Below are positions 1,026 to 57,153 of a stretch of 64,000 nucleotides of DNA, piece by piece; the stretch's first letter is position 1; the number at the start of each line of letters is the position of its first letter. The position numbers and the translations under genes are program-made. The notes beneath the pieces are model-generated. The model made no database searches. It was not told where the DNA came from and saw only the letters and a list, made by a program, of their open reading frames with translations. The DNA is from Mustelus asterias (taxonomy: Eukaryota): the NCBI RefSeq assembly GCF_964213995.1, contig NC_135804.1, forward strand, positions 26,350,001 through 26,414,000, given 5' to 3'.

Positions 1026-2845
1026 CTGACGAAGAGTCATCCCTACTCAAAACATTAGCTCTGTTCTCTCCACGGATGTTGTCAGACCTGTTGAGATTTT
1101 CCAGCTTTTTCTGTTTTTGTTTGTTTCCAGCATCCACAGTAATTTGCTTTTATCTTCGTGTCAAATTCACTGCCACTTCTCTTCCAGGAATGCCTACCCT
1201 GAAGAAGTACTGCTCTTCGCTCTGACAGGATTCCTGTTTGTCTCGTTCACCCTATCCACCTTCATCACTTTCCATTTCCCACCTGGTGTTCAATAAGGTA
1301 AAGTGTATTTATTAGTCACAAGTAAGGCTTACATTAACACTGCAATGAAGTTACTGTGAAACTCCCCACAGTCCGGCACCCGTAGGGGTCAATGCATCTA
1401 ACCAGCACGTCTTTCAGAATGTGGGAGGAAACCGGAGCGCCCGGAGGAAACCCACGCAGACACGGGGAGAACGTGCAAACTCCACACAGACAGTGACCCA
1501 AGCCAGGAATCGAACCCAGGTCCCTGGCGCTGTGAAGCAGCAGTGCTAACCACTGTGCCACCGTGCATGTTTACCACAATTTGCTTTCACAGCCATATTT
1601 CCTTCCTCTGCGACTGCCTCCATCTTCAACTTATCCCATGTGGATTCCAACTGAAGTTCCATTCCTCAAATTTCAAACCTACTCAGGATTACAGGTATCT
1701 CCAGGACATACAATGCTCCTCAGATTGCTGTTCTCACCACATCCTAAGATCCACACTCAGTGCCACGTGTCGCCATATGCACACAATATCTCTCCAGCAA
1801 CACCAACTCACCCTATCTCAAAGTTGTCTTTATCTCCAGTTTCATTTCATTCTTCGTCTCACCCGATGCCTCAGCAATAAATTTCTCATCCTTTCAGGTA
1901 TTAAGGAACAGATGCTCAAACAACTCAATACCAACATCCATCCAGAACCCTCCTCCCCTTCCCATCTTTCAAACTTTATCCCTCCTAACTGCAGCCCTTA
2001 CCATACCCTCTGACCTTCCCCTGAGGCTGAACGTGCTGCACTCGGCAAAGAACGCTGCTTCATACCTTTATGCCTCCACCTCAATGCTGAACTCTTCTCT
2101 GCCTTCTTCATTTCCATGCTCAGTTCTTTGGGCAGGAATCCTCCTCTTATGCAATGGATCCTTTCACCCACCTCCACCATTCTCCCTCCACCTGGACCTC
2201 TCTCTTCAACCTCCTCCTAATCTTTTCATTGAGAACTGTCAACAAGACATCAGCTGTCTCAATTTCTCTGCTCCTCTCACCCATTCTAGCCTGTATCCTT
2301 CCGAACTGCTGCACTCTGCTTTCTCTGGTTCAACCCCGACTGTCATCAAACCTGCTGTTATCAGTCTGGCATACTGACCGTGACCTCAGAGGCGGAGCTC
2401 TCAGATGCTTCCTCCTACCTCCCCTTGGACCATGACCCCACCACCAAGCCATTGTTTTCAGGACTGTCACTGACCTCATCGCCTTTGGTGATCTTCCCTC
2501 CAAAGCTTCCAACCTCAGTCTCCCAACTCCGGACGGCCCGCTTCTACCTCCTTCCCAAAATCCACAAACAGGACTGTCCCAGTAGACCAATCGTGTCAGT
2601 CTGTTCCTGTCCCACTGAACTCATTTCTCCCTATCTTGACTCCACCCTCTCTCCTCTTGTCCAGTTCTTTCCCACCTACATCTGCGATTCCTCTGATGCC
2701 CAATGTTCTCTCTTTTGTATTTTAAAAGGAGCTCTGACAAAGGGTCATCCAAATTTGAAACGTTAGCTGTTTTCTCTCCACAGATACTGTCAAACCTGCT
2801 AAGATTTTCCAGCATCTTCTGTTTTGTTTCAGATTCCAGCATCCT
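1026..2845 (+). mobile_element. Degenerate Penelope-like element: terminal repeat, RT fragment, terminal repeat; interrupted by a SINE
   Basis: ORF 2380-2766 contains FYLLPKIHK...RPIVS...PTELIS, the PLE/telomerase-type RT N-terminal motifs. Related hammerhead-bearing terminal repeats lie at 1026-1153 and 2730-2845. Confidence 0.8.
1297..1566 (-). mobile_element. HE1/V-SINE-like SINE (tail type b)
   Basis: tRNA-like A/B boxes (TGGCACAGTGG, GGTTCGATTCC), the V-domain gtctgcgtgggtttcctccggg, and tail ...gtaagccttacttgtgactaataaa. Confidence 0.85.
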
Positions 2846-3400
2846 GCATTCTAAGGAGAACAAGTGCACCTATCCAATCTTTCCTCAAAGCTTCAATTTT
2901 CCAGCCCTGGCACCACCCTCATAAATCTCCTCTGTGCCCACTCTAATGCAATTAGATCCTTTCTGTAATGAGGTGATCATAACTGCACACAGTACTCAAT
3001 TTGTGGACTAACTAATGTTTTATATAATTCCAGCACAATGTCCCTGCTCTTATGTTCTATGTCTTGGCTAATAAATGAAAAAATTCCGTATGCCTTCTTA
3101 ACCAACTGATCACCCTGTCCTGCTACCTTCAGGGATCTGTGGACACTCACTCGGTCCCTCACTTCCTCTACACCACTCAGTAACCTCCCATTTATTATCT
3201 ATTCCCTTACCATGTTTGACCTCTCCAAATGCATCATCTGACATTTCTCTAGGTTGAATTCCATGTGCCACTTTTCTGCCCAGTCCACTGACATCTTCCT
3301 GCAGACTACAGAAATCCTCCTCACTATCAATCACATGGTCAACTTTTGTGTTGTCGGCAATCTTCTTGATGTACATTTACATTCAAATCGTTAATACATA
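2846..3400 (-). mobile_element. CR1 LINE ORF2 fragment
   Basis: Translations IADNTK and LELYKTLVSPQIEYCVQ match the CR1 RT C-terminal region. Confidence 0.8.
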
Positions 3401-3849
3401 CCACCAGGGGTAAAAGTAACTTCAATTTCTTACAGGTACAGTTGTGTGGGCCCCTTCTCATCTACACTCCTAAACACTTAATTTCATGGATACCATGAAA
3501 ATAAAACTTAATATTGGAATAAAAACCTGAACTAATCTTATAGAAACTCCCATGCAGCTAATTTCGCTGCACTCCCTATTCTCATCACACCATGCCTCAA
3601 GCCGAATTTGCTAATCGAGTCTCAGTTTGATTAACCAGCAATGCAGTTTCACTTGTCTCCTCTCTTTGTGGTGGTGACTCACGTGTAGGTGTAAAAGTGT
3701 CAGTGTTTTCTCCCTGTGGGTGACTCTCAGGTTCATTTATTGCTGTTCTAATTGACTGAGAATCCCCCATTTCCTCACTTATTAATTTAAATGTACCCAC
3801 CAGGGTCTGTTGAACATATAATCTTAGGCAGCATTTTCCCCTGAAAATC

Positions 3850-4147
3850 AGAATCCCTACAGTGCAGAAGGAGGCCATTCGGCCCATTGAGTCTGCACTG
3901 ACCACAATCCCACCCAGGTCCTATCCCCGTGCATTTACCAAACTAGACCCCTGACACTAAGGGGCAATTTAACATGGCCAATCCACCTAACCCACACATC
4001 TTTATAGTGTGGGGGGAAACTGGAGCACCCGGAGGAAACCCACGCACGCACAGGGAGAATATTCAAACTGCACAAAGTGACCCAAGCCGCGAATCAAACC
4101 CAGGTCCCTGGCACTGTGCCGCAGCAGTGCTAACCACTGTGCCACTG
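3850..4147 (-). mobile_element. HE1-like SINE (CR1-type tail a)
   Basis: tRNA head, V-domain and tail ggccgaatggcctccttctgcactgtagggattc. Confidence 0.85.
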
Positions 4148-4579
4148 TTAAAAATTAAAATACAATCTTTTTTTTAAAATCCTCACAATAAAAAATATTC
4201 CACATTATGAATTTTTACTTTGAAATATTTCAGCAAAATGTTCCTTTAACAATGTAATTAAATAAAGTAATTTTATTTCCTGCTCAAAAATACTCTGACA
4301 CTTTAAAGTGTTTCTCTGAATTATTTTAATTCTAGCGTAGCTCTGCTCACTTATTTATTTAGCTCCAATACCTCAGTAAGACCTCAAAGGTCTAAACAAA
4401 TTCAGAAATATTTTCTCCGTCATGCACTCTTAAATGTCTCAGTCCTCCTCTCTCTTCCTCCTGTAGCCTCTTACTTGCTGTCAATTATCAGACGATGCCA
4501 CCAGCTCTAATTTCTAAATTAACCAACTATAATCAAAATGCTGTCTTTCAATACACAAACCAATCATAAAAAGCACTAA

Positions 4580-6133: not shown

Positions 6134-6550
6134 GAGCTCCCCTGGTGGCTTAGTTTGGAAATTCACTGCCTATTCAGCCTTTTGCAGACCAAGTGAGTCT
6201 CAGGTTCGATCCCCAGTTTAATCCAAGCTACTTGACTTTAGCAAAGGGTCACAGCAGGGATATTACAATTTTCCCTAGTACTCCTTTGGCTGGAGAAAAG
6301 AAAAAGAAAATCAGTTCTCAATTCCAATCCAGTAAGCTATTACTTTTCTAACTTGTCTCAGTTCTGATAAAAAAGGTCACAAACCTGAAATGTTAACTCT
6401 GTTTCTCTCTCCACAGATGCTGCCAAACCTGCTGAGTATTTCCAGCATTTTTTAAATTACAATCCAGCAACTTCAGCTGAAGAGCATCAGGTTCAACTGT
6501 AATAACTGTTCAATATGTAACAACTTATCAAGTCCTCAACCTAGACTGTA
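6134..6550 (+). mobile_element. Ancient tRNA-derived SINE (AmnSINE2-like by recall), split by a PLE stub
   Basis: A box tggtggcttagt and B box ggttcgatcccc; related fragments at about 43630-43760, 44400-44500 (-) and 55295-55560. Confidence 0.5.
6336..6455 (+). mobile_element. PLE terminal-repeat stub with degenerate hammerhead
   Basis: AGTT-CTGATAA...AGGT/ACCT-GAAA-TGTT-AACT. Flanked by attccaatccagtaa (6321-6335) and attacaatccagcaa (6456-6470), a probable TSD. Confidence 0.7.
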
Positions 6551-10944: not shown

Positions 10945-11090
10945 ATATTATACACACACACACGTCCGTGTGTATAAATGACGTATGCATGTATAAAACA
11001 CAACATATAGCGTGTAACACATAAGCACAGAATATAGCGTGTATAACACACAGCTACAGCATATTACATATATACGGTGTGTATATGTAC
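10945..11090. repeat. Low-complexity CA/TA-rich repeat in CTU2 intron 1
   Basis: Alternating purine-pyrimidine tracts with recurrent atatagcgtgt. Confidence 0.7.
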
Positions 11091-11155
11091 ACAGTAAGAG
11101 TTTTAACACCACCAGGTTAAAATCCAACAGGTGTATTTGGTAGCAAACACCATTA
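11089..11155 (-). mobile_element. PLE terminal-repeat fragment (family A)
   Basis: Near-identical to 16424-16490. Confidence 0.8.
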
Positions 11156-11244
11156 CCATATATACCATCGTATATGTGTGTATACCAGGCACCTCTCCCG
11201 ACAACAAAGCGTTTCTATAAAAATGAATGGGTTTGCTGTCTAAC

Positions 11245-11794: not shown

Positions 11795-11940
11795 ATGGCG
11801 ATGTTTCGGAGTTTGGTCTCCGGCGCTCAGGCGAAACAAGCGCCCTCGGCGCCGGGGGAGAACCTGGCGGATTCGTACAGCTGCCCCATCTGCCTGGAGG
11901 TCTACCACAAGCCGGTGTCCATAACCAACTGCGGACACGC
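11795..11940 (+). CDS. RNF166: RNF166 coding exon 1 (146 nt; MAMFRSLVSG...CPICLEVYHKPVSITNCGH), RING-HC E3 ubiquitin ligase
   Basis: MAMFRSLV N-terminus and first half of the RING domain match RNF166; |gtgagt donor at 11941. Confidence 0.96.
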
Positions 11941-13365
11941 GTGAGTTGGGGTTGAGGGTTGATGAGGGGGGGAAGCTGAGTGATTTGATGGATGGATGGA
12001 TGGATGGAGTGTCTGCTGGCTCCGGGGATTATAGACAGTCCCACACAATGGCTGTGCGGCAGCCCCAGGAGCAAGTTGAGGGGAAGAAGCTGCGTTGGGG
12101 GGGGGGAGCTGATCAGGGGGACAGTGAGGGGGGAGGATCGGCCAGCCCTGGAGCAGGAACTTGAGGCTGTTTTGGATGGAGGAGGTTGGGGGGTTAAAGC
12201 GCGCTCTGCAGACACAGGCTGTTGTGAAGTTCTTCCAAAGCTCCTTCCATGGCGCCTTCTTCACGGCTGACTTTGTTGGGTCAACACCGAGATGCCACCA
12301 GTAGCTGTTAGGCCGGTCGTGTTTATGTTTTTATTTGGGGGGAAATAATGTTGACACGGAAGATTTGGAAGTTCCTTCCGTTTGGGTTCAAATGTCTCCC
12401 CGCTCCAAAACAAACAAACAATTGTAACTGTGACTGATCACCCCCCAAAAACCGACCAATGTGACCGAAAGATTTCCAAGTGCATGGTGTTTTTCATATG
12501 CACCTTTAAACGAGTATGCTTTTATTTTTAAACAACCCCTTTCCTCCGCCCTCGAATACATTCTGCCCAATCGACAAACTTTGACACAATTAAATACACC
12601 GAGGTAAACAATATCTCGCAATTCTAAAGCTGCAGTGTAAACTTAACCGACCCCGTAGTGGACAGAACGGTGATATAAATAGAATACACACGATGTCAAG
12701 TTACTGCAAAATCTATGCGGTTGATTCGGAACAGACAAATGATCGACACAATCGGATTTGTGAACTCCACATATTAATACAGCTCATTCTTGTCTTGTGT
12801 GCCGGCTTGTTTTCTGTTTTTATCTATGCTGCAAACTCAGCAGATTTAATTTGTATTAAAGTTTCTCAGTTTAACCAGACTTTTTTGTGCGTTCTCGGGT
12901 CTGTACCATCAGAAGGAACAACATATACATTTATGATATACTCCAGCTAACTGTCATCGGTTTCCCCGCTTCCATGGGCAATCGTATACAGATTGACCCG
13001 TTGGTGAACTCTAGGAGTCAGAGGGTTAAGTTCGCAAAATAAGTTACCATCAGTCCTTTAGGAATGTTGTGTACCAGTGAGATAAAGCAAATACTCGACC
13101 AGCACTGTGGCACTAGGGAGTATAATATTCTTAATTCCAAAATCATTATTAGTTGGTATTGTTTGATCAAACCAGAACAGAATCACTTTTTTTTTGTTGA
13201 ATCAAGTTTTGGTCATTTCTGCACTCCATTGGCTAGTTCATCATCAGGTGTTATGTCTCCTAACTCAATGAACGTTCTGTTGATTTTTGTTTTCAGTAAC
13301 ATGCTTAGTTCCTGTATATTTGGCCAAGCCTTTTGTCAAATCATCCTCTATTCTGTCAGTTCATA

Positions 13366-13970
13366 GTTTGAGGATAAGGGGGTAAACCTTTTAGAACTGA
13401 GGTGAGGAGCAATTTCTTTATTCAGAGGGTGATGAATGTGTGGAATTCACTACTGGAGAAAGTAGTTGAGGCCAAAACGTTTTGTGATTTCAAGAAGGTG
13501 TTAAATATTGCTGTAGGGACTAAAGAGATCAAGGGATATGGGGGGGTGGGGGAAGGCGGGATCAGGATATTGAATTTGATGATCAACCATGATCAAAATG
13601 AATGGCAGAGCAGGCTCGAAGGGCCTAGTCCTGCTTCTGTTTTCTATGTTTCTATGAGTAGTGTCCCAATCTGTTTAATCTTTCCTCATAAGACAATCCC
13701 TCCATATCGGGGGTCATCCTAGTGAACCTTCTCTGAACTGCTTCCAATTAAATAATAATATCTTTCCTGAAAAAGGGGGACCCAAACTGCCCACAGTACA
13801 CCAGATGTTGAGGCCAAAACGTCTGATTTCAAGAAGAAATTAGATGTACCTCTTGGGGCCAAAGGGATCAAGAGATATGGTGAGCAGGGGGAAATCAGGA
13901 TATTGAATGCAATGATCAAAATGAATGGTGGAGCAGGGCCGAATGCCCTACTCTTTCTTGTTTCTATTTC
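13366..13970 (+). mobile_element. Rearranged CR1 3' end (tail, inverted internal piece, second tail)
   Basis: CR1 tail at 13366-13655, reverse-strand QFGSP-type piece at about 13660-13805, and a second tail starting gttgaggccaaaacgt at 13807. Confidence 0.7.
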
Positions 13971-14539
13971 TGTGAATGGGGAAAGGGGAGGAACTTTTAT
14001 TTTTACTTTTATGTATCATAGTGAAGGAAAATGTTCATTGAAACCCACTTGAAATAATATATTGTATCCCCTTTGGCGCAAGACCATTGTAAAAAACAAT
14101 CCCCAAAGCTGAGAGCTTTCATACTGACATTGCCTTAAAGTTGTGTTTGTTTTTGTATCCTGGTGGTAAACTGAATTCACTAATCATTTCTGAAACAATT
14201 TGGTTGTGTTGTCAAGGATTGATTTTTTTTTTCAATGCACATGGGAAGAGAATGTGTACCCCACTGGGGAAGAATTTCTAGGTGTTTTGATTGTCAAGTT
14301 TGGTTATAGAGAAGATTCTGTAGATGTATTGAGTCCCAAAGCATGTATTTCCAAACAGAACTGTACCCCAAAACGCTGGCACAATGAATATTTTGGTATA
14401 CTAACTTACCCATAAGTTTACCCAATGTATTTAATCTCCCTAGCGGAGGTTCTGCAATGTTTAAAAAAAATTGCATGAAGTATTTCTTCATGGCCCCATC
14501 ATTGTTCTATGCAAGAGAATAACTTCAAATCAGATTATC

Positions 14540-15045
14540 AGGTGGCTCGGTGGCTCAGTGGTTAGCACTACTGCCACTCAGTGCCAGGGATCCAGGTTTA
14601 TTTCCAGCCTCAGGTGAATGTCTGTGTGGAGTTTGCACATTCTCCCCGTGTCTGCGTGGGTTTCCTCCAGGTACTCCGGTTTCCTCCCACAGTGACAAGA
14701 TATGCATGTTAAGTGGATTGGCCATACTAAATTAGTATTTAGTATAAATACTAATTTATACTAAAATTATTAGTATAATAATTTATACTAATTATAAATT
14801 AGTATAATTTACTAATTATACTAATTATAATTAGTATAATTATAATTATACTATAATATAATAGTATAATTATATAATTAGTGTCCCTTGGTGTCCAAAG
14901 ATGTGTAGGCCAGGGGGATTAGTGGGGTAAATACATGGGGTGGGTGGGGGGGGGGGGGGGAGGGGGGGGGCCTGGGTGCTCAACCGGAGATTCGTTGCAG
15001 ACTCGATGGGCCGAATGGCCTCCTTCTGCATTGTAGGGATTCATA
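14540..15045 (+). mobile_element. HE1-like SINE (tail a) with an internal AT-rich insertion
   Basis: Head, V-domain and tail are recognisable, with about 150 bp of AT-rich insert at 14731-14881. Confidence 0.85.
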
Positions 15046-15484
15046 CCTAAGTTTCCTTTGTTCTGTTTTTGCCAAGCTAATAAACATCCTTAAAATGCTG
15101 GTTTACTTCAGTGATTTTATACATGTAGTTACTAAATCGCTTCTCTTAAACATGTACACTTGTTAAGTTCCTCCAACTGAATCATTTATCACCTTTATTC
15201 AGTTCACAAAAATGCACTTGTTCTCGAATGGACACTAGAATACAATGAAGTAAAGGGGATGTTTCAAGTTTATTTTCTTTCATAAATCAGGGAATACAAT
15301 GACTGGGGGTATACCGAGAGGAGGATCTTAATCAGATAACAGGAGCAAAGTGAGTAATATTTAGGCAAGGGAAGATCACAGGGCAGGTCAAAGTGGAATA
15401 CTGCGGATGCAGGAAATCTGAAGTAAAAGCAGAAAATGTTGGAAATACCCAGCAAGTTATGGCAGCACCTGTGGAAAGAAACAA

Positions 15485-15521
15485 AGTTAATGTTTCAGGT
15501 CTGCAACCTTTCATCAGAACT
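15485..15521 (-). ncRNA. Minimal type I hammerhead ribozyme motif (core intact, stem III mutated)
   Basis: AGTT-CTGATGA-A-AGGT(TGCAG)ACCT-GAAA-CATT-AACT; CATT instead of CGTT is consistent with CpG decay. Confidence 0.6.
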
Positions 15522-16651: not shown

Positions 16652-16869
16652 ACATATTACATCTCCAGTGTTTGAATGGAAAGGTGATGTGGGAGGGGAC
16701 TGGTTGTTGTAGGTGATTGAGGAGTGGACCAGGGTATCAAGAAGTGAGCATTCCCTTTGGAATATTAAAAGGGGAAGGGAGGGGAAGATGTGTTTGCTAG
16801 TGGCATCATGCTGGAGATGGCACAAATAGCAGACAATGATCCATTGAGTATGGAGGTTGAGTATTCGAG

Positions 16870-42155: not shown

Positions 42156-42250
42156 AAAGCATTTTTAAAAAATGATAGCGGTGAGGCTTATATCAGCAAA
42201 TCTTACCTTGGCCTCACCCCAAGTCCTCCGGCACCTCTTTTAAACGCCTT

Positions 42251-43080: not shown

Positions 43081-43929
43081 CTTGTCTTGTTCCACTACTA
43101 GCAGCAATCCTTGAAGGCACTTACAGTGGCTCTTTCAAACTCCCAGCTGTCTAACCTTTGGCCTCCTGTTCAGCTATGAATCTGTTCAATCACTTCTACA
43201 CCTCTACCTTTGATGCTCTTGACCCCCATAAAGCTCTTGCTCTCTTCCACCTGGTTACACCCCCTAGTGCAGCTCCTTGTCTAAGAGGCACAGCCTAAAG
43301 GTTTGTGTTGCACAGCTAGATTAATCATTTGTTGCCTGATCTCGCTGGACCACATCAATCACCATCAGACCCTGTTCCCATCTTCCAAAAGACTTCCTAT
43401 TCCAGGATCATTCTGCAATGCAAAATAATCCATGCTTTATTCCACTACCAACCATGTCCTTAAGCCGCTCCTTCAACCCCTTGCCCATTCCACCCTTGTC
43501 TCCAATAAGTGCAAGGAGCTCACAGACAGCTTTGTCACGGAGACCATTCACTTATCAGTGTCAAGCTTGTCTGATTCTGCTCCTGTGAAGCTCTATGGAT
43601 AATTTTCTTATGTTAAATGCACTATATGACTGTGGGTGCCAGATGAGAATAGGATTGCATTTTTTGTGATATTCCCTGTCGTTGAATAACCTACAGTCAA
43701 GACTGAAACATGAAGAATGGTTGTTTTAGCAAAGTACTGCAGGGCACCTGTCTACTCTGATAAGGAATCAGTGTCTCGAAGAGAGAACGGGAGCTGGTGG
43801 GGGGAAAGATAATAAGTGCAACAATATCTAACTTGGTGAAGTACTTACGGTTGATGCACATCTTCTAGAGGATCACAATAGAAGATGCTACCTGTACCAG
43901 TTTGATAATGTGCTGTAAGCAAAACATTT

Positions 43930-44345
43930 ATGTCAAATGTGACTCAGTTGATAGCACTCTTGCTTCTAAGTTAAAAAGCTGTGCTTTCAAGAGTTAAACA
44001 CAAAATCCAGGCTAATACTCTAGTGCAGTACTGTCCAACGGTGCCATCATTCAGTTAAGGCATTAAACCAAAACCATGTTTGTCCTCAGACATAAAAGAT
44101 CCATGGCACTGTTTAATGAAAAACAGAGGAATTCACATGGTGCCTTGGTCAATATTTATCGTTTAACCAGCATCATTAAAACAGGTTACCTACACATTAA
44201 TGCATTGTTGATTATGGGACCATGTTGTGTGCAAATTGTCTGCCATATTCCCTACATTACCGCGTGACTACACTTAAAAAGTACCCTGGCTGTATAATGC
44301 TTTGGGCATCATGCTGTGTGGGACACTAAGAATGTGTCTTTCAGC
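43930..44345 (+). mobile_element. Deu-domain SINE, degraded
   Basis: aaaagatccatggcact...ggtcaatatttatc...ttcctacattac, colinear with 46000-46550. Confidence 0.6.
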
Positions 44346-45023
44346 TTTACTAATATTTCTCTTTAACGTGAGCGTTCAAAGAATATTTGATTGTGGTTAA
44401 CCTCCAAACTAAGCTGTGTTCTATCCCGATCGGATGTCCATAAATGCTTTTTCAGCAGGGGTCACTGAATAGCTGTGAGGAACAGGAGGGTTGGCTGATT
44501 CATTAAAGATCTGGAATCAAACTTACCATCTTTGCCTTTTAGAAGTCTTTCCAAAACCCATATGTATCTGACTAAACTTTTGACCACCTCTTCCACAAAG
44601 GCTTGGTGTCTGCTCTTTTCCTCCTTTGTGTCATGTACCTTGAGATTTTTTTTCCTACATTAAAGCTATTGTATAAATGCAAATTATTGTTGACGTTCTG
44701 TTGAATTTATTATTGTTTTGTATTTTTAAGTAACAGTTTTCTGAAAGGGAACTGTGACTTTGCCCTGTTGTTTCAGAAGCATTGTTCTGGAAACTACTAC
44801 ACTGCAGTTATTGACTTCAATGACTAATCGTTTTTGCTTTTGTACAGCTGAGTCCTGTAAGTTTGGGATGCAATAAGCTTCTGTTGTATAAAGCCCAGAG
44901 AAAACTCACATCAGCAATATGTTTCTATCCTCATGCCAGTGAACACTAACCACAGGCTCAACTGGATGAATGGGATCAGACTTTGAGTTTATGTTTTTTT
45001 AAAGGCATGCCTTCGTATCAATA

Positions 45024-45255
45024 TGAAAACAGAAAATGCTGGAAATACTCAAAGTCTGGCAGCATCTGTGGAGAGAGAAACAGAGTTAATATTTCAGGTC
45101 GAGGGCCTTTCACCAGAAATTCCAATGAAAAGTCATTGACCTAAAACATTAACTCTGTTTCTCTCTCTGCAGATGCAGCATGACATGCTGAGTATTTCCA
45201 GCATTTGCCCTTTTCCTTCTCAGATTTCCAGCATTTGCAGTGTTTTGCTTTTGTA
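45024..45255. mobile_element. Palindromic PLE stub (family B) with two back-to-back degenerate hammerheads
   Basis: Inverted arms centred near 45120; imperfect 12-bp TSD ttcgtatcaata (45012-45023) / ttcatgtcaata (45256-45267). Confidence 0.8.
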
Positions 45256-46338
45256 TTCATGTCAATAGCTTTCGTGAATCTCTAGATGCAGAAATGGTTG
45301 CAAGGAGAGTAACCTTCTCTGCTATTATATAGGACCTTACTCATAGCTGGAAATTGGCATATGACAAACAGATGAATTCAAGTTTCAGGCTTCAGTTGAT
45401 CTTTGATGTCTTGTGCCAACTTTATATTGGTTAGTAATTGAAGATGTCCATGCAATGGATAGTACAGTTCATTTGACTCTTGATCGCCCCTGTGAACTCA
45501 GTCGTTGCCTGGTAGTTTAACAATACTTTGCGGTCTCTTAACAGCTAATGTTGATGAGGATACACTTGCTGTTGATTGTTCTGCAGTGTCTTCTGTCATG
45601 TAGTTCTGCTGGAAGCATTATATGCTATGACAGGCTTGTTCCTGAGGTCACATCCAACATTACATTTAACCAGGCATCCAGGCATCCAGCTTATCTTGGT
45701 GGTGGTATTTGCTGTGATGGTCTCCCTCAGGAATTGGAACTTCTGCATGCATTAATTATTTGGAAACTCATGGTCTTGGCCACCTGTCTGCAGATATGGA
45801 TGTGAGAATCCTAGTGACGGAGGTACAGACCACCTGCTGTGCAGCCTGTTTCCCTTGCCCCACTCCCTATCCCCTTAAAAACAAAATAACCTAAAATTAC
45901 AGCACAAGAGAACTAAAGGAAATGAAGTAACTACGCCGAAATACATTTACCTTAACATCAGAATCTTCTCCTGACTGAACCATGACCATATTCAATGTAC
46001 AGAAATGACCTTAGCTCTGTTGCCTTTGACTCAAAAAATTTTGGGTTTAAGATCGCTCAGATACTTGAGCACAAAAGTCTATGATGACACATCAGTGCGG
46101 TCCTGCAGGAACACTGCACTGTCAGCGGTGCCATCTTTCAGGTGAACTGTCTGACCCTGTCTGCTCTCAAGTGGGCATAAAAGATCCCATGACACTATTT
46201 CAAAGAAAAGCTGGGGAGTTTTCCCCGGTTCGATGTTTATCCCTGAACCGAGATCACTAAGCAGATGACCTGTCATTACCTCATTGCTGTTTGTGGGTGT
46301 TCTCTGTATGAAAATTGGTTGCTGCATTCCTACATTAC

Positions 46339-46444
46339 GATGCACTCACCTGAAGAAGGGGCTCAGAGCCTCGAAAGCTTGTGTGGCTTTTGCTACCAAA
46401 TAAACCTGTTGGACTTTAACCTGGTGTTGTTAAACTTCTTACTG
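46339..46444 (+). mobile_element. ~106-bp PLE stub (family A) with 12-bp TSD
   Basis: ttcctacattac at 46327-46338 and 46445-46456; nearly identical to 57053-57153. Confidence 0.88.
46347..46383 (+). ncRNA. Minimal type I hammerhead ribozyme motif (intact)
   Basis: CAC-CTGAAGA-A-GGGGC(TCAGA)GCCTC-GAAA-G-CTT-GTG, with palindromic AAGCTT in place of stem III. Confidence 0.75.
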
Positions 46445-46654
46445 TTCCTACATTACAACAGGGGCTACAATTCAAAAATACTTCATTAACTGTAAAGCAC
46501 ATTGGAAAGTTTTGTGATCATGGGAAGTGCTATATAGATGCAAGTTCTTTTAGTTATACAATTTTACATAATTAAGTAGATTATGTATATAACTATCTTA
46601 TTTTAAGTTGCTGGTATTTACTTGTAAACAAGGATGACCCATTGAGTTATATGA

Positions 46655-47225
46655 CATATTGGATGCAGCTGTATAGAACGCTGGTTAGGCCACATTTGGA
46701 GTACTGCGTCCAGTTCTGGTCGCCGCACTACCAGAAGGACGTGGAGGCGTTAGAGAGAGTGCAGAGAAGGTTTACCAGGATGTTGCCTGGTATGGAGGGT
46801 CTTAGCTATGAGGAGAGATTGGGTAAACTGGGGTTGTTCTCCCTGGAAAGACGGAGAATGAGGGGAGATCTAATAGAGGTGTACAAGATTATGAAGGGGA
46901 TAGATAGGGTGAACGGTGGGAAGCTTTTTCCCAGGTCAGAAGTGACATTCACGAGGGGTCACGGGCTCAAGGTGAGAGGGGCGAAGTATAACTCAGATAT
47001 TAGAGGGATGTTTTTTACACAGAGGGTGGTGGGGGCCTGGAATGCGCTGCCAAGTAGGGTGGTGGAGGCAGGCACGCTGACATCGTTTAAGACTTACCTG
47101 GAGAGTCACATGAGCAGCCTGGGAATGGAGGGATACAAACGATTGGTCTAGTTGGACCAAGGAGCGGCACAGGCTTGGAGGGCCGAAGGGCCTGTTTCCT
47201 GTGCTGTACTGTTCTTTGTTCTTTG
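46655..47225 (+). mobile_element. Young 5'-truncated CR1 LINE 3' end
   Basis: Open ORF2 C-terminus (LYRTLVRPHLEYCVQFWSPHY...WNALP), CpGs retained, ending in (TTTGTTC)n. Confidence 0.92.
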
Positions 47226-47829
47226 TTTTGGACACAAAAATCCAATAGGTCATACCACAGGAGATGACTTCACAATGTATGAAAATTTGTGTTTTATATT
47301 GAACTCTGTTTGGTTCTGATTTAAGAATGAATTGTTTTGGAATCTGAAAGTGTGCACATGTGTCAGTGCAGCACTTCCTCAGGACTGCACTGCTGTGTTA
47401 GCCTCGATTTTTATGTCTGTTCTGTATGTGGGGTGTTCAATACTGTGCTAATGATCTGGAAGCATTTGTTGAAATCCCACTATAGAAGATGGGAAATTTA
47501 AATTCAATGAATTAAATACATCTGAAATTTAAAAATAGTCTCCGTGATAGTGACCATGAAAATACCGAATTGTTGTAAAACCCGATCTGGTTCACTAATG
47601 TCCTTTAGGGAAGCAGATCTGCCCTGTTTACCCAAGCTGACCTATATATGATTCCAGACCCAGAGAAATGTGGTTGATTCTTAACTGTGCTCTGCCTAGC
47701 ATGCCCCTCGGTCATACTCGGTCCTTCTCGAGGGCAAATAGAGATGGGCAATCGATGCTGACTTTGCCAATGAAGCAAACGTGGTGAATGAGTAAGGATG
47801 GCATGCTTTGAAGGGCTTATTGAGAAGCT

Positions 47830-48150
47830 GGAAACTAGAGGGCATAGGTTTAATAAAACTAGAGGGCATAGGTTTATGGTGAGAGGGGAGAGATACAAGA
47901 GGGTCCAGAGGGGCAATTTTTTCACACACACGGTGGTGAGTGTCTGGAACAAGCTGCCTGAGATAGTAGTAGAGGTGGGTACAATTTTGTCTTTTAAACA
48001 GCATTTAAACAGTGACATGGGTAAGGTGGCTATAGAGAGATATGGGCCAAACACGGGCAATTGGGACTAGTTTAGTGGTTAAAAACAAAGGGGCGGCAAG
48101 GACAAGTTAGGCCGAAGGAGCTGTTTTCATGCTGTAAACCTCTATGACTC
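47830..48150 (+). mobile_element. CR1 3' fragment with a 21-bp tandem duplication at its 5' junction
   Basis: Similar to 18960-19270; aaactagagggcataggttta at 47832-47852 and 47856-47876. Confidence 0.85.
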
Positions 48151-48305
48151 TTAAGTTACAAGTTCATTCATTAATGATAATTTATTAGCTTGATAATTAA
48201 GTTCTTCATAGATTTTGGTAACATAATTCTTCATGAGTCAGGAATGTTTTTTTGAGAAAGATTACCCTGCAAACTGGTTGCTAACAATGATCCACTGTCT
48301 CTCAG

Positions 48306-48462
48306 GTTTTGCCAGGAATGTTTGCAACCCTGCCTCCAAGTTGTGTCACCTCTGTGTCCACTTTGTCGTATGCCATTTGACCCAAAAAAGGTGGAAAAGG
48401 CCTCTAATGTGGAGAAACAACTTTCTTCTTATAAGGCTCCCTGCCGAGGATGCAATAAAAAG
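48306..48462 (+). CDS. RNF166: RNF166 exon 2 (157 nt; FCQECLQPCLQVVSPLCPLCRMPFDPKKV...APCRGCNKK)
   Basis: ctcag| acceptor and |gtaagc donor; completes the RING and starts the C2HC finger; phase matches exon 1. Confidence 0.97.
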
Positions 48463-48694
48463 GTAAGCAAAAGCAAACCAATTAATTTAGTATATTTTGG
48501 AATTACATTTTTTTAAAAATTGATTTCTAAAATGATATCCATATTTATTCAATGAAGGTTGAAATTCTAAAACAGTTTGTTGTCCTGTGCTGCAGTAGAT
48601 GATCTACTTATGGGTTTGGAATCATCCACTATTTCCCATGTCTTTAGCAACATGTTGAAATGACAACAAAATTACTTATTTTGATATTTTCAGA

Positions 48695-49095
48695 CGAATG
48701 AGGGGGGAATCTCATAGAGACTTTTAAAATTCTAACAGGACTAAACAGGGTAGATGCATGGAGGATATTCCCGATGGTGGGAGAGTCCAGAACCAGGGGT
48801 CACACTCTGAGGATACAGGGTAGACCATTTAGGATGGAGGTGAGGAGACATTTCTTCACCCAAAGAGCGGTGAGCCTGTGGACTTCACTACCACAGGAAG
48901 TAGTTGATGCCAAAACGTTGAATGTATTCAAGAGCTGGCTGGATATAGCATTTGGGGCGAATGGGATCAAAGGTTATGGGGAAAAAGCAAAATTAGGCGA
49001 TTAAGTTGGAGAATCAGCCGTGATCATAATGAATGGCAGAGCAGGCTCGAAGGGCCAAATGGCCTCCTCCTGTTCCTATCTTCTATGTTTCTATA
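48695..49095 (+). mobile_element. CR1 3' fragment
   Basis: ESRTRGH...FFTQRAVSLW peptide followed by a CR1 tail. Confidence 0.8.
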
Positions 49096-49992
49096 GAAGA
49101 AATGATGGAGACAGGCAGAGAATGTGATTTTGTTGCTCTGTTTTGTACAATTAGTGGAATAAATGGTGTCTGCCCTAGTCTAATGTTGCATATTATTGCA
49201 TGACTTTGTGATACTATAAACCTTTCGCTACTCAAAGATTTTAATGTTGGGCATTTACCCTTCATTAAATTCTCCATTCAGTTTTTAATTGTGATTTCTA
49301 GCTACTTACAAACTCTTTGCTGCAGCTCCTGTAAATCCTGCAGTTCAGAAACATTAGGTTCAATCTTATTTTGCAGGCAGGGGCTGGGAAATTGAAGCCC
49401 TCACATTGCCAGGACAACAGTTTAATGACTTGGGTGTTGAGGAGTCATACTAACAGCTGTAAGGACATGGCTGATGGTAAATGCCAAGCTCTTCAATTCC
49501 CAGAAGAGGAACTTGGAACAACTGCCCTCAACTGTGTTCTTGCAATTTGGGGCGAAATTTTACACAGCCCTGTCGGGTGTGCACCTGACCCGGAAGCTCG
49601 TGATGACATCAGGTGCACGTCCCAACGCCATCATGTGCTCTTGATAATTTGGTTGGTGAGCACAGACACGGATCAGTAGCGCACCCGTCAACAATTAGGG
49701 AGCCACTTGAGAGGATTAATTCTGCAGTTAACAGGAATATTATGTTGCCTGCGTGATTTTTATGTCGGCACACGAGCAGGCAACCAATCCGCTTTTGCAG
49801 TTTTCACATCCAAGGACGGGGTAAAGGGAGGATTTTCACAGTGACCTCATTGCAATGTTAATGTAGGCCTACTTGTGACACTAATAAATAAATTTTTAAC
49901 TGAAAGTTAGGAGTTTTGGAGGGTTCAGTGAGTGTTTCGTTTGGAGCATTTTCTCTGCATTCTTTGGAGGTTCAGCATATGTGGGGGAGGGA

Positions 49993-50875
49993 GGGGCAAT
50001 TCTACCATCCCGCTGCGCTGCTTTTGTAGCACAAGGGGTCAGGAGACTCGAGCGGAGGCCGTTTCGCGGGCTCCCCGCTGGGCACCACGGCCTCCGCAAT
50101 TCTCTAGCGGCCGTCAGCTCTACATCAGAAATAAGCGCGGGGCTGCATAAATTATGATAATAGTAATTTACATCTCTTTTAAATGTCATTAGCTGGCCCG
50201 AGACTGAAGTCTCCCCCTCCCGCCCCCTGCCAGGAGTGTTTCACTCCAGCGGGGTTTAGTATGGCTCCCCTCGTGCGGGAAGCTGGCATAGGGCAGTGCC
50301 ATGGGGGGGGGGGGGGGCCTCTGGGAGATGATCGGTGGGGATGGGGAGTTCCGCCTCCGATCTGCACTCGAGCTGAGTGACACAGTGAGGGCGGCCAGTG
50401 ATCGGGACTGGCCATTGGGGTTGCGGGGGGCGAGCGGGCGGGGGTCAGGGCTGCTGGTTTGGGGGCGATGGATCAGGGTGGCTGGGGTTGGGGGGGGGGG
50501 GGGTGTCGAGGCTGGCCCAGACATGTTCGGCGGGCCAGTGATCGGAATGTGGGGGGAGTCCCCGCCTGCCAGCGATGCAGGGGTCATGGGGCTGGCCAGC
50601 GATCAGGATGCCGGCAGTGCAGGGCCACTGCGCATCCTCCAATCTCGGCGCTGACAGATTGGCGCAAGAGCAGTGGCCCGCTCAGCACTGTGCTTCCGGC
50701 CTCTCCAGCGGGAATAGGCTCCACCTGCTGATTTTCAGCGTGATTCACGCTGAGGCTCTCTGCAGTGCACAGTGTGTGGGAGATTCATTTTGAAACTTCT
50801 GCTGAAAAAAAAGCTTGATTTACTCCAGTTTTTATGCGAATTCGACACTCAGAATTTTTTTGGGAGAATCACCAC
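49993..50875. mobile_element. GC-rich MITE-like element (second Harbinger-type family)
   Basis: Imperfect TIRs GGGGCAATTCTACCA / TGGGAGAATCACCAC; G-run-rich interior like the 32k and 42k elements. Confidence 0.55.
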
Positions 50876-51928
50876 CATAGTCTGGAGCTTTCAGGACATT
50901 GCTGTTCTCTCACATTGGAGATTTGCATCCCTCTGGCACCCTTCGTGCACAGGTCAGCCCCATTTGCATTGCTGCAGATGAGTATAGCGTACTCAGCAGG
51001 GAGATCCTCATCTGAGGAGGAGAACGGGACAGAGAGAAAGAGAGAGAGAGAGGAGCCCAGGTAGTTGCAGGCATCACCTTAAAGCAGAGGCGCAGGCACA
51101 GGGTGTTCAAGGCCAACAGGTATTGTTGCTTGATTAGTAATCCAGAGACCCAGGTTAATGCTCTGGGGACCCAGGTTCAAATCCCACCATGGTAGAATTT
51201 TTTTAAAAATCAATAAAATATCTGGAATTAGCAGTCTAGCAATGACCATAAAACCATTGTCGATTGTCGTAAAACCGATCTGCCTGGACACCACCGCATA
51301 TGTTTGCTGTATCTTACTTCAAACTTCAAAACCCCATGCCATTAACCTTATGCGCAATGGAAGTGGATGTACAAATGGATAATGGTTAACTATAACACTT
51401 AGAAGAAACTATCTCAGGTAACAATTAATATTCATAACTTGCTTTATGAAGCCCACAATAATGCATTGGGATTCACTCATAAATTCATTTTTTAGATAAC
51501 CGAAAGGCGAGACAATTATTTGCGAAGCTTCTAAGTTCTTTTGTCTGCTGTTTCATGGTTTTTGTTAAATTTCCAAGGAGTTTGCAGGAATCTTGTACTT
51601 CTGCTCGCTCATGTTCTGAAACTGCTTTTGCTGCTTGCGCTCAGGTGGAGATGGACGCCACACCAAGGTTCCTGGCGTTCATCAGAAGGTTCAATTTCTA
51701 CGAAGCAGCAGATGTCATTAACTGGGACCCATTTTACCCATTGATAATACAGATTCTCCAGTGATTTGAATTAACCAATAGGTTTTATAATGGGGGGACA
51801 TACTCTGCCTGATTTTGATTTCAGTTAAGAGCCACTGTACATTTCATGTCACTTATGAATTTCTGAAGAGATACCGGATTATTCAAAATGTCTATCAGAT
51901 ATATAAAACCCAATGTTTGTTGCACTAG

Positions 51929-52041
51929 GTGACCCTGGTGAAGATGCGGACACATATTTCCTCCTGCAATAAAGTTCAGGAGCAGATGGACAACTGTCCA
52001 AAGTTTGTACCTGTTGTTCCTACCACGCAGCCCATTCCCAG
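51929..52041 (+). CDS. RNF166: RNF166 exon 3 (113 nt; VTLVKMRTHISSCNKVQEQMDNCPKFVPVVPTTQPIP)
   Basis: cactag| acceptor and |gtaagg donor; peptide close to human RNF166 as I recall it. Confidence 0.96.
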
Positions 52042-54237
52042 GTAAGGAACCGGCAATGTAAATTCTGCAAGAAAATCTTTGAAAATAAGCCACTCTTCAA
52101 GTTTGCAAACTGTCATGACACCCCAGATCAATTTAAAAGCACTGAATTGAACCATCAGTGATGACTGAAACTCATTTACACAGTACGTGCATTAATTTTC
52201 AATCACAACATTACTTTAGTGTTTTGCAGAAGAAGTCTACTAAACTATTCTCGTGTGCACAATTCACTTTTTGGAAAACATTTTTAAAAGCTATTGGATC
52301 TTCAGAGATGATGTAAAAATAACCTATGAGATGCTTGCATGCAGCACAATGTAAATATGAGTATTCTTAAGAAAATCCTCCGTCAGTAAAATAACTGTCT
52401 TATTTCATTATGAATCTTTGATAAAGCATATATTCCTGGACTTGCAAAAGCAATTTCAGATTATCTCTTGACAAGGCAAGAGTAATGGGGAAAAAAAGAT
52501 GTGATTTCAGATCAGTCGCTGTGAGATGGTTGCATGAATTCCTTCTTTCCAAAGAGCAAACCTGAGGTTTGATTTTAGCAGCTGTGATGGTTTCTGAGTG
52601 GAGTATTCGGAGATTTGCCTTTTCAGGCGGACTCAGCAGGTTTTTGGGAGAGAGAGCGTGTTAAATATTCCTCATTAATTCTGCAGTTGCAGCATTTGCA
52701 GATTGTCTGGACTCTTTCGGCAGAACAGCAGTTGATTTCTTCTTTGTCCTCCCTTGGCCAAGAACCCTCTCTGATGTTGTCTCTGAGTTTTTCTCGGGGT
52801 TCTGCATCCTGTTTCTCAAAATGGCTTCTTAGCCTCTTCTATACATGGCTGCTGTGCTAATTTTCAAAGAGTCATTGTCCAAAGAAGTTAATTATGTTGT
52901 TGTCCTCTGAAGTCGCTTCCAGTCTCCTGTTCCCTTAGTGGCAAAAGGACTTTTTACACCTTTTAGAAGATTCAATGGACATCCCTGGTGGGATCATTGC
53001 ATTTTAACGATTCTTCATAACTAGCTGTAGGGATACAAAGCTGACCAAGTTTTAACAACGCAGAAAGGTGCCACGTTGCCCGTCCATACTTCCATTCTGT
53101 ACAAGACTTTTAAGCTCAATGTAAAGGTTTATAAACAGAAATGTACCTTGAAAACCGTTGTTCTTAAAAAAATCTGTAATATCAATTACACATTTGTGAC
53201 ACATACACTATGACTTTTGATCGCTGATGTCAAACTTTTAACAGAAACAAAACAATCTTAAAATGCTATGTTGTTCTAACTGCAACATAAAACTGACCAC
53301 TGGATTCCAGATGCTTCCCAATCAAAAATGAAGTTCTGAATGACCTTTGAGTTCGTGCTTTAGGTCCACCTTCAAATAATATGTTGTGTGTTATGTGATA
53401 TAATGTTCCTGTTCTTCCAAAGTAGCATGTCGCTTTGAGAGATGTATTTAAGATTATGAAGGGGGTGGAGAATGCGGATTCAAGCCAGATTTTCTGTTGT
53501 GTATTCAAAAACAAGGTAAATAGTTCAAAATTAAGAAATTTGGGCATTTTTCAGTAAATGGATGATAAACGTATGTATCAGATAACTAGCAAGTGTGGTG
53601 GAAGAGAAAACTAAACTATACTTGATAAGTTAATCTCAACAAGTAGAATTCAAGATAATTGGGTTTAGAAACCTATCAAGGTAATAATGTTGTGAGAAAT
53701 TGAATGGGTAGAGTAGGTGGACTGATGGTTTAATCTTACCTGAAAATTGTTACTATCTATAAAAAGTGCATTTTTATAGCATCTTTAACATAGTAAAATG
53801 TCCCAAAGTACCTAGCAGACATGACAATCTATCTTTAAACAATGATGAGAAAACTTCTAGGAAAAATAATTGAAAATAAAGGTGGTGGTAAATTTTGAGA
53901 AACCTTTAATGGGTTGGGTGCGCAATATCAAATGAAAGAAATATAGGGGGAGCATGCCAGAGATCTGCTAGGAAACATAACAGTATTTTTAATACAGCAA
54001 TTCATTTGCAATGGGATAGATGTTGCCATGTGTTTCTATTGTGCTTGTTTTGGGATCAGTGAAATCAGATGTGCTTGAAACAGATAACGCAGCTAGCTAT
54101 TCTCCACTAGAGATCTTTTACTTTCCTCCTTTCCTGTCAAGTACAAGACAGAGCCAATCACTATTCTTGACCTAGCCAACTTGCTGGGTCACTTTGGTGA
54201 AGGTACGTTTACTAAAGCAAATTTTGTTCTCCTCCAG

Positions 54238-54352
54238 TAATATTCCAAACCGTTCCACGTTCGTCTGCCCATACTGTGGGGCACGAAACCTTGACCAACA
54301 GGAATTAGTCAAACATTGCATGGAAAATCATCGCAGTGATCCCAACAAAGTG
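54238..54352 (+). CDS. RNF166: RNF166 exon 4 (115 nt; NIPNRSTFVCPYCGARNLDQQELVKHCMENHRSDPNKV)
   Basis: ctccag| acceptor and |gtaagt donor; Di19-type C2H2 finger. Confidence 0.97.
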
Positions 54353-55097
54353 GTAAGTCCTTAGTTTCTCATTTCATACCCAAACCAGGATAATTAAGAG
54401 TTGAAGTTTTATGATGCATCTACAATTAAAAATCTTGGGCAGGGCAGGGCATGTACTTTTCAAGCCTTACATCTTGTGTTGCAATTTTAGTTATGCCAAC
54501 TTACTGTTACTAGCTACTAAGTCAATATTTCCATTTAATTTTGCTATCAATGATTTGGTTACAAGTACTGAACTCTAGATGGCTCTGTGGAATAGATTTT
54601 TATAGTTTCTTAACTCGGTTGCTGTCTTGTATATTAAAAAGATATATATTCATCAACTGACTTTAGATGATGCCACAGTATCTGGAAACTAATTCTACAA
54701 AGTTAGCTCCCACTGTAATGAATTTATATCAGAAAAATTGCCACACATTTTATAAAACATTATAAATGAAAAGTGAACCAAAAGCTAAACCATCTCATAC
54801 ACACCTTAGTTTATTTGGATAATATTTGCAGAAACTTCCCCTATTTGAAAAGGGAAGTTATGGAGAGGAGAGTGAGAGGGGATGATGTATCTGTTCATGG
54901 CCTGTTACTGAAAGCAGGGTAAGTTGGTTGAGGAGAATGCATCTTGCACTGCTAGTGCTTTGGGCGTGCCTCTGTCTAGTCAGCAAACCCAGCGTAAAAG
55001 AGTAACAAACTACTAGAAACAGCAAGAAGAATAGAATGGTACTTATTCTTTTATCATCCAACTCCTTGATTTTGTTTTTGATCACTTATGTGAGTAG

Positions 55098-55205
55098 GTA
55101 TGTCCAATTTGTGTGGCAATGCCATGGGGAGATCCGAGCTACAAGAGTGCCAACTTTCTTCAACACTTGCTTCACAGGCACAAGTTCTCCTATGATACAT
55201 TTGTG
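55098..55205 (+). CDS. RNF166: RNF166 exon 5 (108 nt; [36 protein letters not shown])
   Basis: gagtag| acceptor and |gtgagt donor; conserved CPICxAMPWGDP motif. Confidence 0.96.
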
Positions 55206-56469
55206 GTGAGTATGAGTTCTTTAACATGGAAAAATATCTTTTGGAACGCTGCAATGGCTCCGTTTGTAATGGCACCTTATATGTAAATTCATTGAACCAG
55301 AGAGATCAGAATGCAACATGTTTGATTTGCAGTCTCTGCCCAGTTAGTTGATTGATGCCAAGATTGAATTTATGATGTGGAGTTGCCGGCGTTGCACTGG
55401 AGTAGGCAATAGGAAAGAAAATAGAAGTTGCAATGGGAAAATTTAGCTACCCCACTCCTGATTAATTTCTGGAAAGTGCACAGGTGTGTAAATATCAGGT
55501 GAGGAAGACCGGATCGGATTCAGCTGTGACTTCCCATCTCGCACCTTCAGAATGCTCAGTGTTTCGGGTCATGTAGGTTATACATTTTCCGTCAGCTATT
55601 TTTAAAATGTAACATTTCATAGTGTGCCACTAATATGGGTTTGGCCGACTGGTTTTAAACTGCTTCCTTCGAATTGAATCAAGTAGCTGCTAAAGAAATG
55701 GCAAACTGGACCAAAACCAGGACAGCAGAATGGAAAATGTAGGATCGAGGCCATCTAGGGGATGGAGAAACGTCCAGAGACCTGGTTCAGTTGGCGGCTT
55801 AGCTATTAAACATAGCTGCAAAGTGGGATGCAAAAGAACATTTATTTGTTTGTTTACTTAATTAAATGATGACTAGCTTATTGCATTAGTTCCATGAGTA
55901 GCCTGTGAAATAAAGACCAAGCTGTGAACTTCTGTCTTATACATCCGTCATGCCATGTTAGATTATACATGAATAAGGCAAATTGTCTCAGCATTTCTTT
56001 GGTCGTGTAGTCATTTATTACGGATCAAAATGTTTCAACTGTGGTTATGTTTTGGTTATTTTTCGGCTGGTTTTAACCTTTAAAGATATTGTACAGTTTG
56101 AACCTATACGTGGCTGTTCTTTGTAAATTTCTGTGATTTCTGCTTTCAATCTTCTGTTCACTTCTTTTGAGAGATTTTGTGAATTATGCTCCTAATTTGA
56201 GAGGGGAGGCACAATTCCTCTGAATGCATTGCAACAAAAATAGTAAATGTGTTCTTTATGAAAAGATTTGTAACTTTGCTACACATGCTGCTCTGATGGT
56301 ACCTTCCTCGATATAACAGGGTGATTTTCTACTGCTCCCCCTCTCCTCACATGCACATTCACTTAAAATTTATATGTCTGATTAGTATAATAGGGTGATT
56401 CCTTTGCTTCTGTTGTGGGAGAGCAAATCATACTTGTATAATATTCATTTTCTACCTGTATGAACTAAA

Positions 56470-56632
56470 ATACTTCAAATGCTAGAAGTCTGAAGTAAAA
56501 ACTGAGTATGCTGGAAGTAGATCATCCAGCATTTTGTGGAGAGAGAAACAGAGTTAACATTTCAGGTTAGTGCCCTCAAACTTAAAACTTGATAAAAGGT
56601 CATTGACTTGAAATGTTTATTTGCTTCTCTCT
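56470..56632. mobile_element. Palindromic PLE stub (family B); right arm resumes near 57252 after a CR1-tail insertion
   Basis: gagagagaaacagagttaacatttcagg...aggtcattgacttgaaatgttta...ttctctct, followed by atgctgccagagctgctgagtatttccagc at about 57251. Confidence 0.65.
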
Positions 56633-56879
56633 GCATCAATGAATATAAGAAATGGCGGCTGCCCCTTCAAGCCTATTCTGCTGTTCAACAAGATCATGGC
56701 TGATCTACCTTAACTCCACCTTCCCACATTATAACCCTTAATTCCCTAAATATCCAAAAATCTGACCATTCCCGTTTTGCATCTACTCAACAATGGAATA
56801 GCCATAAATCTCTGAGGCAGACAATTGCAAAGATTCACAACGGATTGAGTGAAGAAACTTCTCTGTCCTAAATATCCAG

Positions 56880-57153
56880 ACAGACTGTCTTGTCTGGAGA
56901 CAATACACATCTTTTTAGCCTGCCTTGATGCTCTCTCCACTCACGTTGTTTGTATCTTAAAGACTTGATTAGCTGTAAGTATTCACATTCCAACCATTAT
57001 TCATGTAAATTGAGTCTGTGTCTTTATATGCCCTGTTTGTGAACAGAATTCCCACTCACCTGAAGAAGGGGCTTGGAGCTCCGAAAGCTTGTGTGGCTTT
57101 TGCTACCAAATAAACCTGTTGGACTTTAACTTGGTGTTGTTAAACTTCTTACT
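56880..57153 (+). mobile_element. PLE 3' terminal region (family A)
   Basis: Its 3' 100 bp match 46343-46443; the 5' boundary is approximate. Confidence 0.75.
57057..57093 (+). ncRNA. Minimal type I hammerhead ribozyme motif (intact)
   Basis: CAC-CTGAAGA-A-GGGGC(TTGGA)GCTCC-GAAA-G-CTT-GTG. Confidence 0.77.

Follow-up and report, generated by a model that had tools for sequence, protein, structure and literature searches.

The window described here is a 64,000-nucleotide stretch of Mustelus asterias contig NC_135804.1 (positions 26,350,001 to 26,414,000, forward strand), and positions are counted from its first letter. It contains hammerhead ribozyme motifs in short repeats inside and beside the host gene RNF166. 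A preliminary description named 11 such sites and read them as a retrozyme-like system, in which RNAs bounded by the ribozyme move as independent non-autonomous elements. All 11 sites exist where it placed them. Self-comparison of the window gives 13 insertion events in 64 kb, which belong to two families, A and B, without blastn similarity to each other outside the motif; five of these events (11086, 29594-29730, 41060-41230, 56467-56635 and 57250) are absent from that description. The window copies are best read as ends of Penelope-like elements (PLEs) of a kind already known, and not as retrozymes. The sites are very probably hammerhead-bearing terminal repeats of two high-copy retrotransposon families, whose short copies would be dead by-products of target-primed reverse transcription and not a separate mobile system. 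The features are listed below. LINE and SINE stand for long and short interspersed element, RT for reverse transcriptase and UTR for untranslated region; inverted structures are given without a strand.

11795..59684, + strand: host gene RNF166, with coding exons at 11795, 48307, 51929, 54227, 55098 and 59598 (tblastn)
1026..2846, + strand: E1, internally deleted family-A Penelope-like element, with the 5' repeat from the hammerhead core onwards, leader, N-terminal half of the open reading frame (ORF) and 3' repeat
1026..1056, + strand: hammerhead remnant A1, G12 changed to A, 5' strand of helix I absent
2730..2768, + strand: hammerhead remnant A2, G8 changed to A, helix I AGCT/AGCT
6333..6454, + strand: stub A3, 122 bp, whose hammerhead has G8 changed to A and whose 3' end is of the short type; 13-bp duplication, 1 mismatch (p ~0.017)
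11076..11156, - strand: fragment B1, which lacks the hammerhead core and begins 2-3 nt ahead of the predicted cut; its 9-bp duplication lies in TA-rich sequence (p ~0.035)
15390..19860, - strand: 5'-truncated family-A element, with RT thumb, linker, GIY-YIG remnant, 3' UTR and terminal repeat with the A4 hammerhead
16390..16651: head-to-head inverted pair B2, intact hammerhead 16517- and G12>A copy 16564+, tail on one arm, exact 12-bp duplication (p ~0.01)
29594..29730: insertion A5, whose hammerhead arm is inverted and in part deleted and precedes the downstream part with its tail; exact 11-bp duplication (p ~0.01)
31445..31540, + strand: stub A6, decayed hammerhead with 2 core changes, in a CR1 LINE, no duplication
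41059..41228: inverted pair A7, with hardly any hammerhead left and a tail on a single arm; the 14-bp duplication has 1 mismatch (p ~0.01)
45024..45255: inverted pair A8, joined head to head at helix I, with two decayed hammerheads and a tail on a single arm
46339..46444, + strand: stub B3, 106 bp long, with an intact hammerhead (core 46350) and an exact duplication of 12 bp (p ~0.01), sense in RNF166 intron 1
56467..56635: decayed inverted pair A9, part of which recurs at 58182-58720 through a local inverted duplication
56885..57153, + strand: copy B4, truncated at its 5' end, with about 175 bp of the element upstream of an intact hammerhead (core 57060); the 3' end is of the short type, and no duplication is present
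57250..57300, + strand: 3' fragment A10, without hammerhead

One small RNF166 exon was not found by tblastn of the window. Exon 1 has a best identity of 88%, to the sawshark RNF166 protein, and the top four named relatives of the window's retroelement protein fragment are those of Heterodontus, Mobula, Stegostoma and Chiloscyllium. From the retroelement relatives and the RNF166 match, the DNA is read as that of a cartilaginous fish.

Families A and B

Family A: Penelope-type RT coding sequence is joined to the family-A repeat in both E1 and the copy at 15390-19860, and by this coding sequence family A is identified as a Penelope-like element. The single 1.8-kb element E1 is bounded by sites 1026 and 2730. 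It has PLE profile matches at 1564-2070 (E 3e-14) and 2515-2700 (E 2e-26), and a likely start codon about 135 nt beyond the cut site. E1 sits in a CR1-type LINE, its left and right flanks aligning about 33 nt apart in one LINE copy, is interrupted by a SINE at about 1300-1566, and has no target duplication. The family-A tail is sequence that continues into the leader in E1.

The copy at 15390-19860 represents an estimated 1.3 kb of element, in pieces separated by three insertions (SINE, CR1 LINE and stub B2) and by an inverted duplication. Site 15485(-) is its 3' repeat, and A4 is a hammerhead with intact core starting at 15517. The coding remnants are colinear from 19586 to 16267 and match profile positions 599-665 (E 2e-14), 709-767 (E 1e-5) and, weakly, 772-808 (E 0.096); the last GIY-YIG piece reaches only E 0.004, in a 301-bp local search. 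The part with the YIG motif is missing from this copy, full-length homologues carry the Pfam GIY-YIG domain, and a Pfam search of the window's PLE fragments gave no match. A CX2-5CxxC linker between RT and endonuclease is present in the nearest full proteins, which look Neptune/Nematis-type, and the window copy keeps two of its three cysteines. B2 is inserted in the coding remnant, flanked by profile positions 767 and 772. The three elements that lie in this family-A copy, a CR1 LINE of about 2.4 kb, a SINE and a family-B stub, came later, so activity of family B postdates the insertion of the copy.

Two local inverted duplications each take in a family-A terminal repeat and its flank. The first (15157-15381 against 16026-16262, 75% identical, with a deleted repeat copy at 15986-16028) lies inside the family-A element's own coding remnant, and the second (56520-56777 against 58182-58720) is 91% identical.

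Family B: This family is likely Penelope-like, an assignment made by structure. A pseudo-long terminal repeat (pLTR) with an optional tail of 30-40 bp, inverted copies and short target duplications are present in both families. B4 extends only 205 nt upstream of the cut and has a high summed contig depth over 56885-57153, against about 100-400 on the nearest flanks. The joint 56841-57153 was considered as an empty site and dropped because both of its flanks are LINE sequence.

Four of the 11 sites (1026, 2730, 15485(-) and 57057) are ends of longer elements and not stubs of 100-260 bp, and three of the four are tied to Penelope-like coding remnants. The arrangement resembles that of endonuclease-bearing PLE units, for which the cited accounts give head-to-head inverted repeats, a tail at one end, solo pLTRs, an optional tail of 30-40 bp, and duplications of 8-10 bp or microhomology joins (PMC3846280, PMC8557442). 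Inverted pairs, one-sided tails and duplications of 9-10 bp are ordinary features of PLE insertion in these sources. Unlike those units, most copies here consist of nothing but the terminal repeat (81-262 bp), and the duplications are 9-14 bp.

Hammerhead motifs and copy ends

A strict minimal type I descriptor finds four sites in the window (46350+, 57060+, 16517- and 15517-) and none in each of 12 dinucleotide shuffles. With at most one core mismatch allowed, six sites are found, against 0-1 in the shuffles. The earlier identification of the motifs as minimal type I hammerheads of Penelope-like terminal repeats is supported. All 11 core bases are kept in four of the 11 sites. The minimal type I features (CUGANGA...GAAA, NUH, helices I and II, and a palindromic helix III) are complete in three of them, 46350+, 57060+ and 16517-, while 15517- has the full core and one mismatch in helix III. 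The loopless self-complementary helix III described before goes with a full core in these three sites only. The remaining seven sites have one to three core changes each, mostly G to A, and U precedes the predicted cut in 9 of 11.

Helix I was said to covary between families. Its pairs do differ on both strands among four subfamilies (AGTT/AACT, AGCT/AGCT, CAC/GTG and CCAT/ATGG), which fits a conserved fold in the parent elements; four subfamilies, from families unalike outside the motif, are too few for a formal covariation test. Helix pairs were read by coordinate and not from a MAFFT alignment, in which families A and B are one column out of register.

In family A, 9 of 77 core positions have changed, against 48 of 395 positions in the 58 bases that follow (Fisher p=1.0). 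The core changes at the rate of the downstream DNA, so the ribozyme is unprotected after insertion, and family-A hammerhead cores decay neutrally. The two complete family-B hammerheads (46339-46444 and 56885-57153) stand in sense orientation in introns of the RNF166 pre-mRNA, 10.7 kb apart and 95% identical. Both are evidently tolerated, which fits inactivity as monomers. Minimum-energy folds of B3 and B4 alone lack the hammerhead fold, which says nothing either way on self-cleavage, and dimer folds are lower in energy at all five sites tested, but through alternative pairings that make them uninformative. An Rfam scan of the window has no hammerhead family among its 22 matches; its microRNA matches were below threshold and were set aside as a product of inverted repeats. 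Two metagenome scans for the family motifs gave 0 loci.

The minimal hammerhead was defined by Cervera and De la Pena in 2014, who describe thousands per genome, mostly single or in opposite-strand pairs and tied to truncated PLEs (PMC4209133). The window motifs share with that set the loopless palindromic helix III, the extra base before helix II and the short helix I. They also share its division into sequence families within one genome, its mostly single copies and its opposite-strand pairs 100-700 bp apart. The accessible part of PMC4209133 names no sharks and describes no pile-up of 5' ends at helix I.

Ends were mapped relative to the predicted cut for 18 pieces, as local-alignment ends of which some overrun into the flanks. 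Two groups of 3' ends are seen, one between about +56 and +65 and the other between about +90 and +100; A2 ends at about +80. None of the 18 has its 3' end at the predicted cut. Position 57153 (+63) is a genome-wide 3' junction in four of four sequencing runs, with 821, 518, 1530 and 66 contigs that have long unlike continuations, some of them continuing into the tail. Most 5' ends lie upstream of the predicted cut; besides those at helix I given below, ends are seen at -61, -9, +5, +9, +20 and far upstream. The copies are not ribozyme-bounded, and the hammerhead would be carried along without setting either end.

This bears on the retrozyme proper, whose mobile unit would be ribozyme-cut monomers or circles and which is highly improbable here. 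Non-LTR retrozymes (Cervera 2020, PMC7229834; Li 2026, bioRxiv 10.64898/2026.07.22.740005) are described as having a type I hammerhead, no coding capacity, duplications of more than 4 bp and kinship to PLE repeats, all as in the window copies. The 2026 source reports PLE-repeat-derived retrozymes with solo monomers in vertebrates, one chondrichthyan included. A circle would also rebuild the hammerhead, so a core inside a copy does not alone rule circles out, and the start of B1 is near the cut site. However, retrozymes are depicted as tandem repeats with a hammerhead per unit, often canonical and expressed as circles, and no tandem or canonical unit is seen here; PMC8969392 repeats the standard description. 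No RNA run is among those listed by the search of sequencing runs, and the matching contigs of run X18, a run guessed to be RNA, were left out as a sign of expression. Ribozyme-cut linear RNA would yield starts at 0, where only B1 comes near (-2), and a small circle would yield tandem units or tail-to-helix I junctions, neither of which is seen in the window copies. Both of the retrozyme features tested are absent, namely head-to-tail units (0 of 13 events, with none at the sites in Tandem Repeats Finder) and a unit delimited by the cut site. The hammerheads are minimal and not canonical, and their cores decay neutrally. For the anole element PAc, hammerhead mutants are reported to insert normally, and RNA ends at the cut site were not observed (PMC11167929). 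The earlier notions of ribozyme-bounded RNAs and of independent retrozyme-like elements are not supported for these copies; several stubs are ends of longer broken elements. B1 (11076-11156) is the sole candidate for a copy of a ribozyme-cut RNA.

Target duplications with p<0.05 flank six of the 13 events. They are 9-14 bp long, around inserts of 81, 106, 122, 137, 170 and 262 bp, and to this extent short copies with duplications of their own are confirmed. Six events have no duplication, and in one further event (45025-45255, pair A8) a candidate of 12 bp, mismatched at 2 positions, does not reach significance (p ~0.49). Matches were compared with those of 400 random position pairs; since 17 boundary pairs were tested, one of the two weaker matches is possibly due to chance. 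Inverted pairs account for five events, with the tail on a single arm in three (B2, A7 and A8), and the structure of A5 appears twin-priming-like. Insert lengths, which the preliminary description had named as a check, do not follow a smooth truncation curve.

This length class recalls a second alternative, in which the short copies would be an independent SINE-like lineage, made of terminal-repeat RNAs from stub loci that are mobilised in trans by the parent protein. Such a lineage is improbable. The class does look discrete, and B3 is young-looking, 106 bp long and intact, with an exact 12-bp duplication. The sources report that cis-acting pLTRs are enough for trans mobilisation in rotifers (PMC3846280) and that non-autonomous PLEs occur in Chlamydomonas (PMC8557442). 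However, B3 is 95% identical to B4, which has upstream element sequence, so short and long copies come from one source subfamily. No two stubs have both ends in common, and the RNA required by PAc is reported to reach past the priming site (PMC11167929).

Helix I and the origin of the short copies

The reading of the short copies as dead by-products of target-primed reverse transcription would involve the following steps. Parent elements would make RNA that carries the terminal repeat. Their protein would nick AT-rich DNA and prime at one of two internal sites, the tail being the sequence between these sites, as is suggested by PAc. Nicking of, and priming from, both strands would give the duplications of 9-14 bp and the inverted pairs, and copying would stop at the 5' end of the RNA or earlier. 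If the template RNA begins at helix I, for which the chances are about even, priming just behind the 5' repeat would run off after 95-130 nt and give a discrete short class. A copy that ends at the priming site would likely lack the downstream RNA needed by the protein, so it could not be remobilised and would decay.

PAc supplies the model for these steps (Frangieh 2024, PMC11167929). The cited account describes internal priming at two sites, nicking and extension of both strands, and a product length that follows the template 5' end; the RNA must reach ORF +172, though priming is at +111-118. As in PAc, the window copies have two fixed 3' ends downstream of the hammerhead, and the hammerhead is not at a boundary. 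In contrast, the PAc ORF starts inside the hammerhead, while the likely start codon of E1 is well past the cut, and the homologues here have the Neptune/Nematis-type cysteine linker.

The run-off step draws on the 5' ends. Five of the eight short family-A events, a set that excludes the long copy A4, have their start, or else the junction of their head-to-head arms, between -30 and -32, which is the first strand of helix I. These boundaries are fixed by LINE flanks (E1, A6) or inversion junctions (A5, A8, A9), and not by subfamily divergence. The scan p for five of eight is 0.0001-0.002 in a 4-nt window and 0.003-0.04 in a 10-nt window, depending on the null. The stubs share their starting point with E1, which goes on into leader and ORF. 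In family B, the short copies begin between -41 and -50. It is an even question whether the family-A transcript starts at helix I, so that priming behind the 5' repeat runs off there. A discrete run-off class of strong-stop-like insertions of 95-135 nt from such a transcript is a tentative proposal, just short of an even chance. That helix I is the transcript start, that insertions of 95-135 nt are programmed, and that some of them now form a self-propagating SINE-like lineage on the parent protein is, as a combination, quite unlikely.

Plain random 5' truncation, with priming in the 3' repeat of long transcripts, differs from the preferred explanation only in the run-off step. For that step it is a doubtful yet serious possibility; the pile-up at helix I would then be small-sample noise, or a pause or fold-back at structured RNA. 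Strong 5' truncation and inverted copies are described as standard for PLEs (PMC8557442, PMC3846280), 5' ends also occur at the scattered positions given above, and the significance of the pile-up drops without A9. However, of the copies that extend to the hammerhead, most end within about 30 nt on the upstream side of the core, and only two are longer, reaching -205 and about -1300. Diagnostic depth is flat between -142 and -44, beyond which it increases about threefold.

Several observations weigh against the by-product explanation and its run-off step. The pile-up was noticed after the fact, among eight events in one window, and without the degenerate A9 it falls to four of seven, with p 0.001-0.13 by null and window. 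In run X1, the values for B4-diagnostic depth (0.9-1.6 million over the flat part, 2.5 million at -11 and about 4 million inside the hammerhead) are not a copy number. Their rise is a weak hint of 5' ends at the family-B hammerhead, where no 5' junction hot spot is present among the loose ends listed. None of the family-B copies in the window has a coding remnant next to it in the profile search, and a parent for this family is therefore presumed. B1 (11156-) alone, one of 18 pieces, starts within 2-3 nt of the cut, in ambiguous TA-rich sequence. Finally, PAc belongs to the Poseidon clade and the nearest full proteins here look Neptune/Nematis-type, so the mechanism is carried over by analogy.

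Two further observations concern helix I as a start site. In Drosophila virilis Penelope, an internal promoter is reported in the hammerhead region (PMC2377424), and the intron reportedly stops where helix I begins (PMC4209133). The match to an initiator-like motif at helix I is weak, and the motif occurs once per 80 bases. A spliced exon as the cause of the boundary, suggested by a CAG acceptor-like site in A3 and A4, was set aside, since no upstream exon is common to the copies.

Truncated PLEs have been known as a source of scattered minimal hammerheads since 2014, and PLE-derived retrozymes were reported in 2020 and 2026. In the literature searched, with Repbase and subscription journals outside it, nothing was found on shark PLE hammerheads or on a pile-up of 5' ends at helix I. 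The remaining value of the window is mechanistic and lies mainly in this pile-up. If it is genome-wide, run-off from internal priming on the 5' repeat would account for the mass of hammerhead copies of about 100 bp in shark and fish genomes. The transcript start could then be mapped from DNA alone, and it would be decided whether a retrozyme explanation is required for solo copies.

Other repeats in and near RNF166

Further repeats are present in the window. A 75/149-bp tandem repeat at 59663-60093 extends from the region of the RNF166 stop codon into the likely 3' UTR. The last RNF166 intron contains a 75-bp pair (57367-57441 and 59216-59290) that is 91% complementary and 1.8 kb apart. An inverted repeat without a hammerhead lies at 28475-28737, with a 127-bp arm, 96% complementarity and a 9-nt loop. 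Another repeat, made of G-rich units of 42-50 bp, has two copies, at 32287-32440 and 42545-42700.

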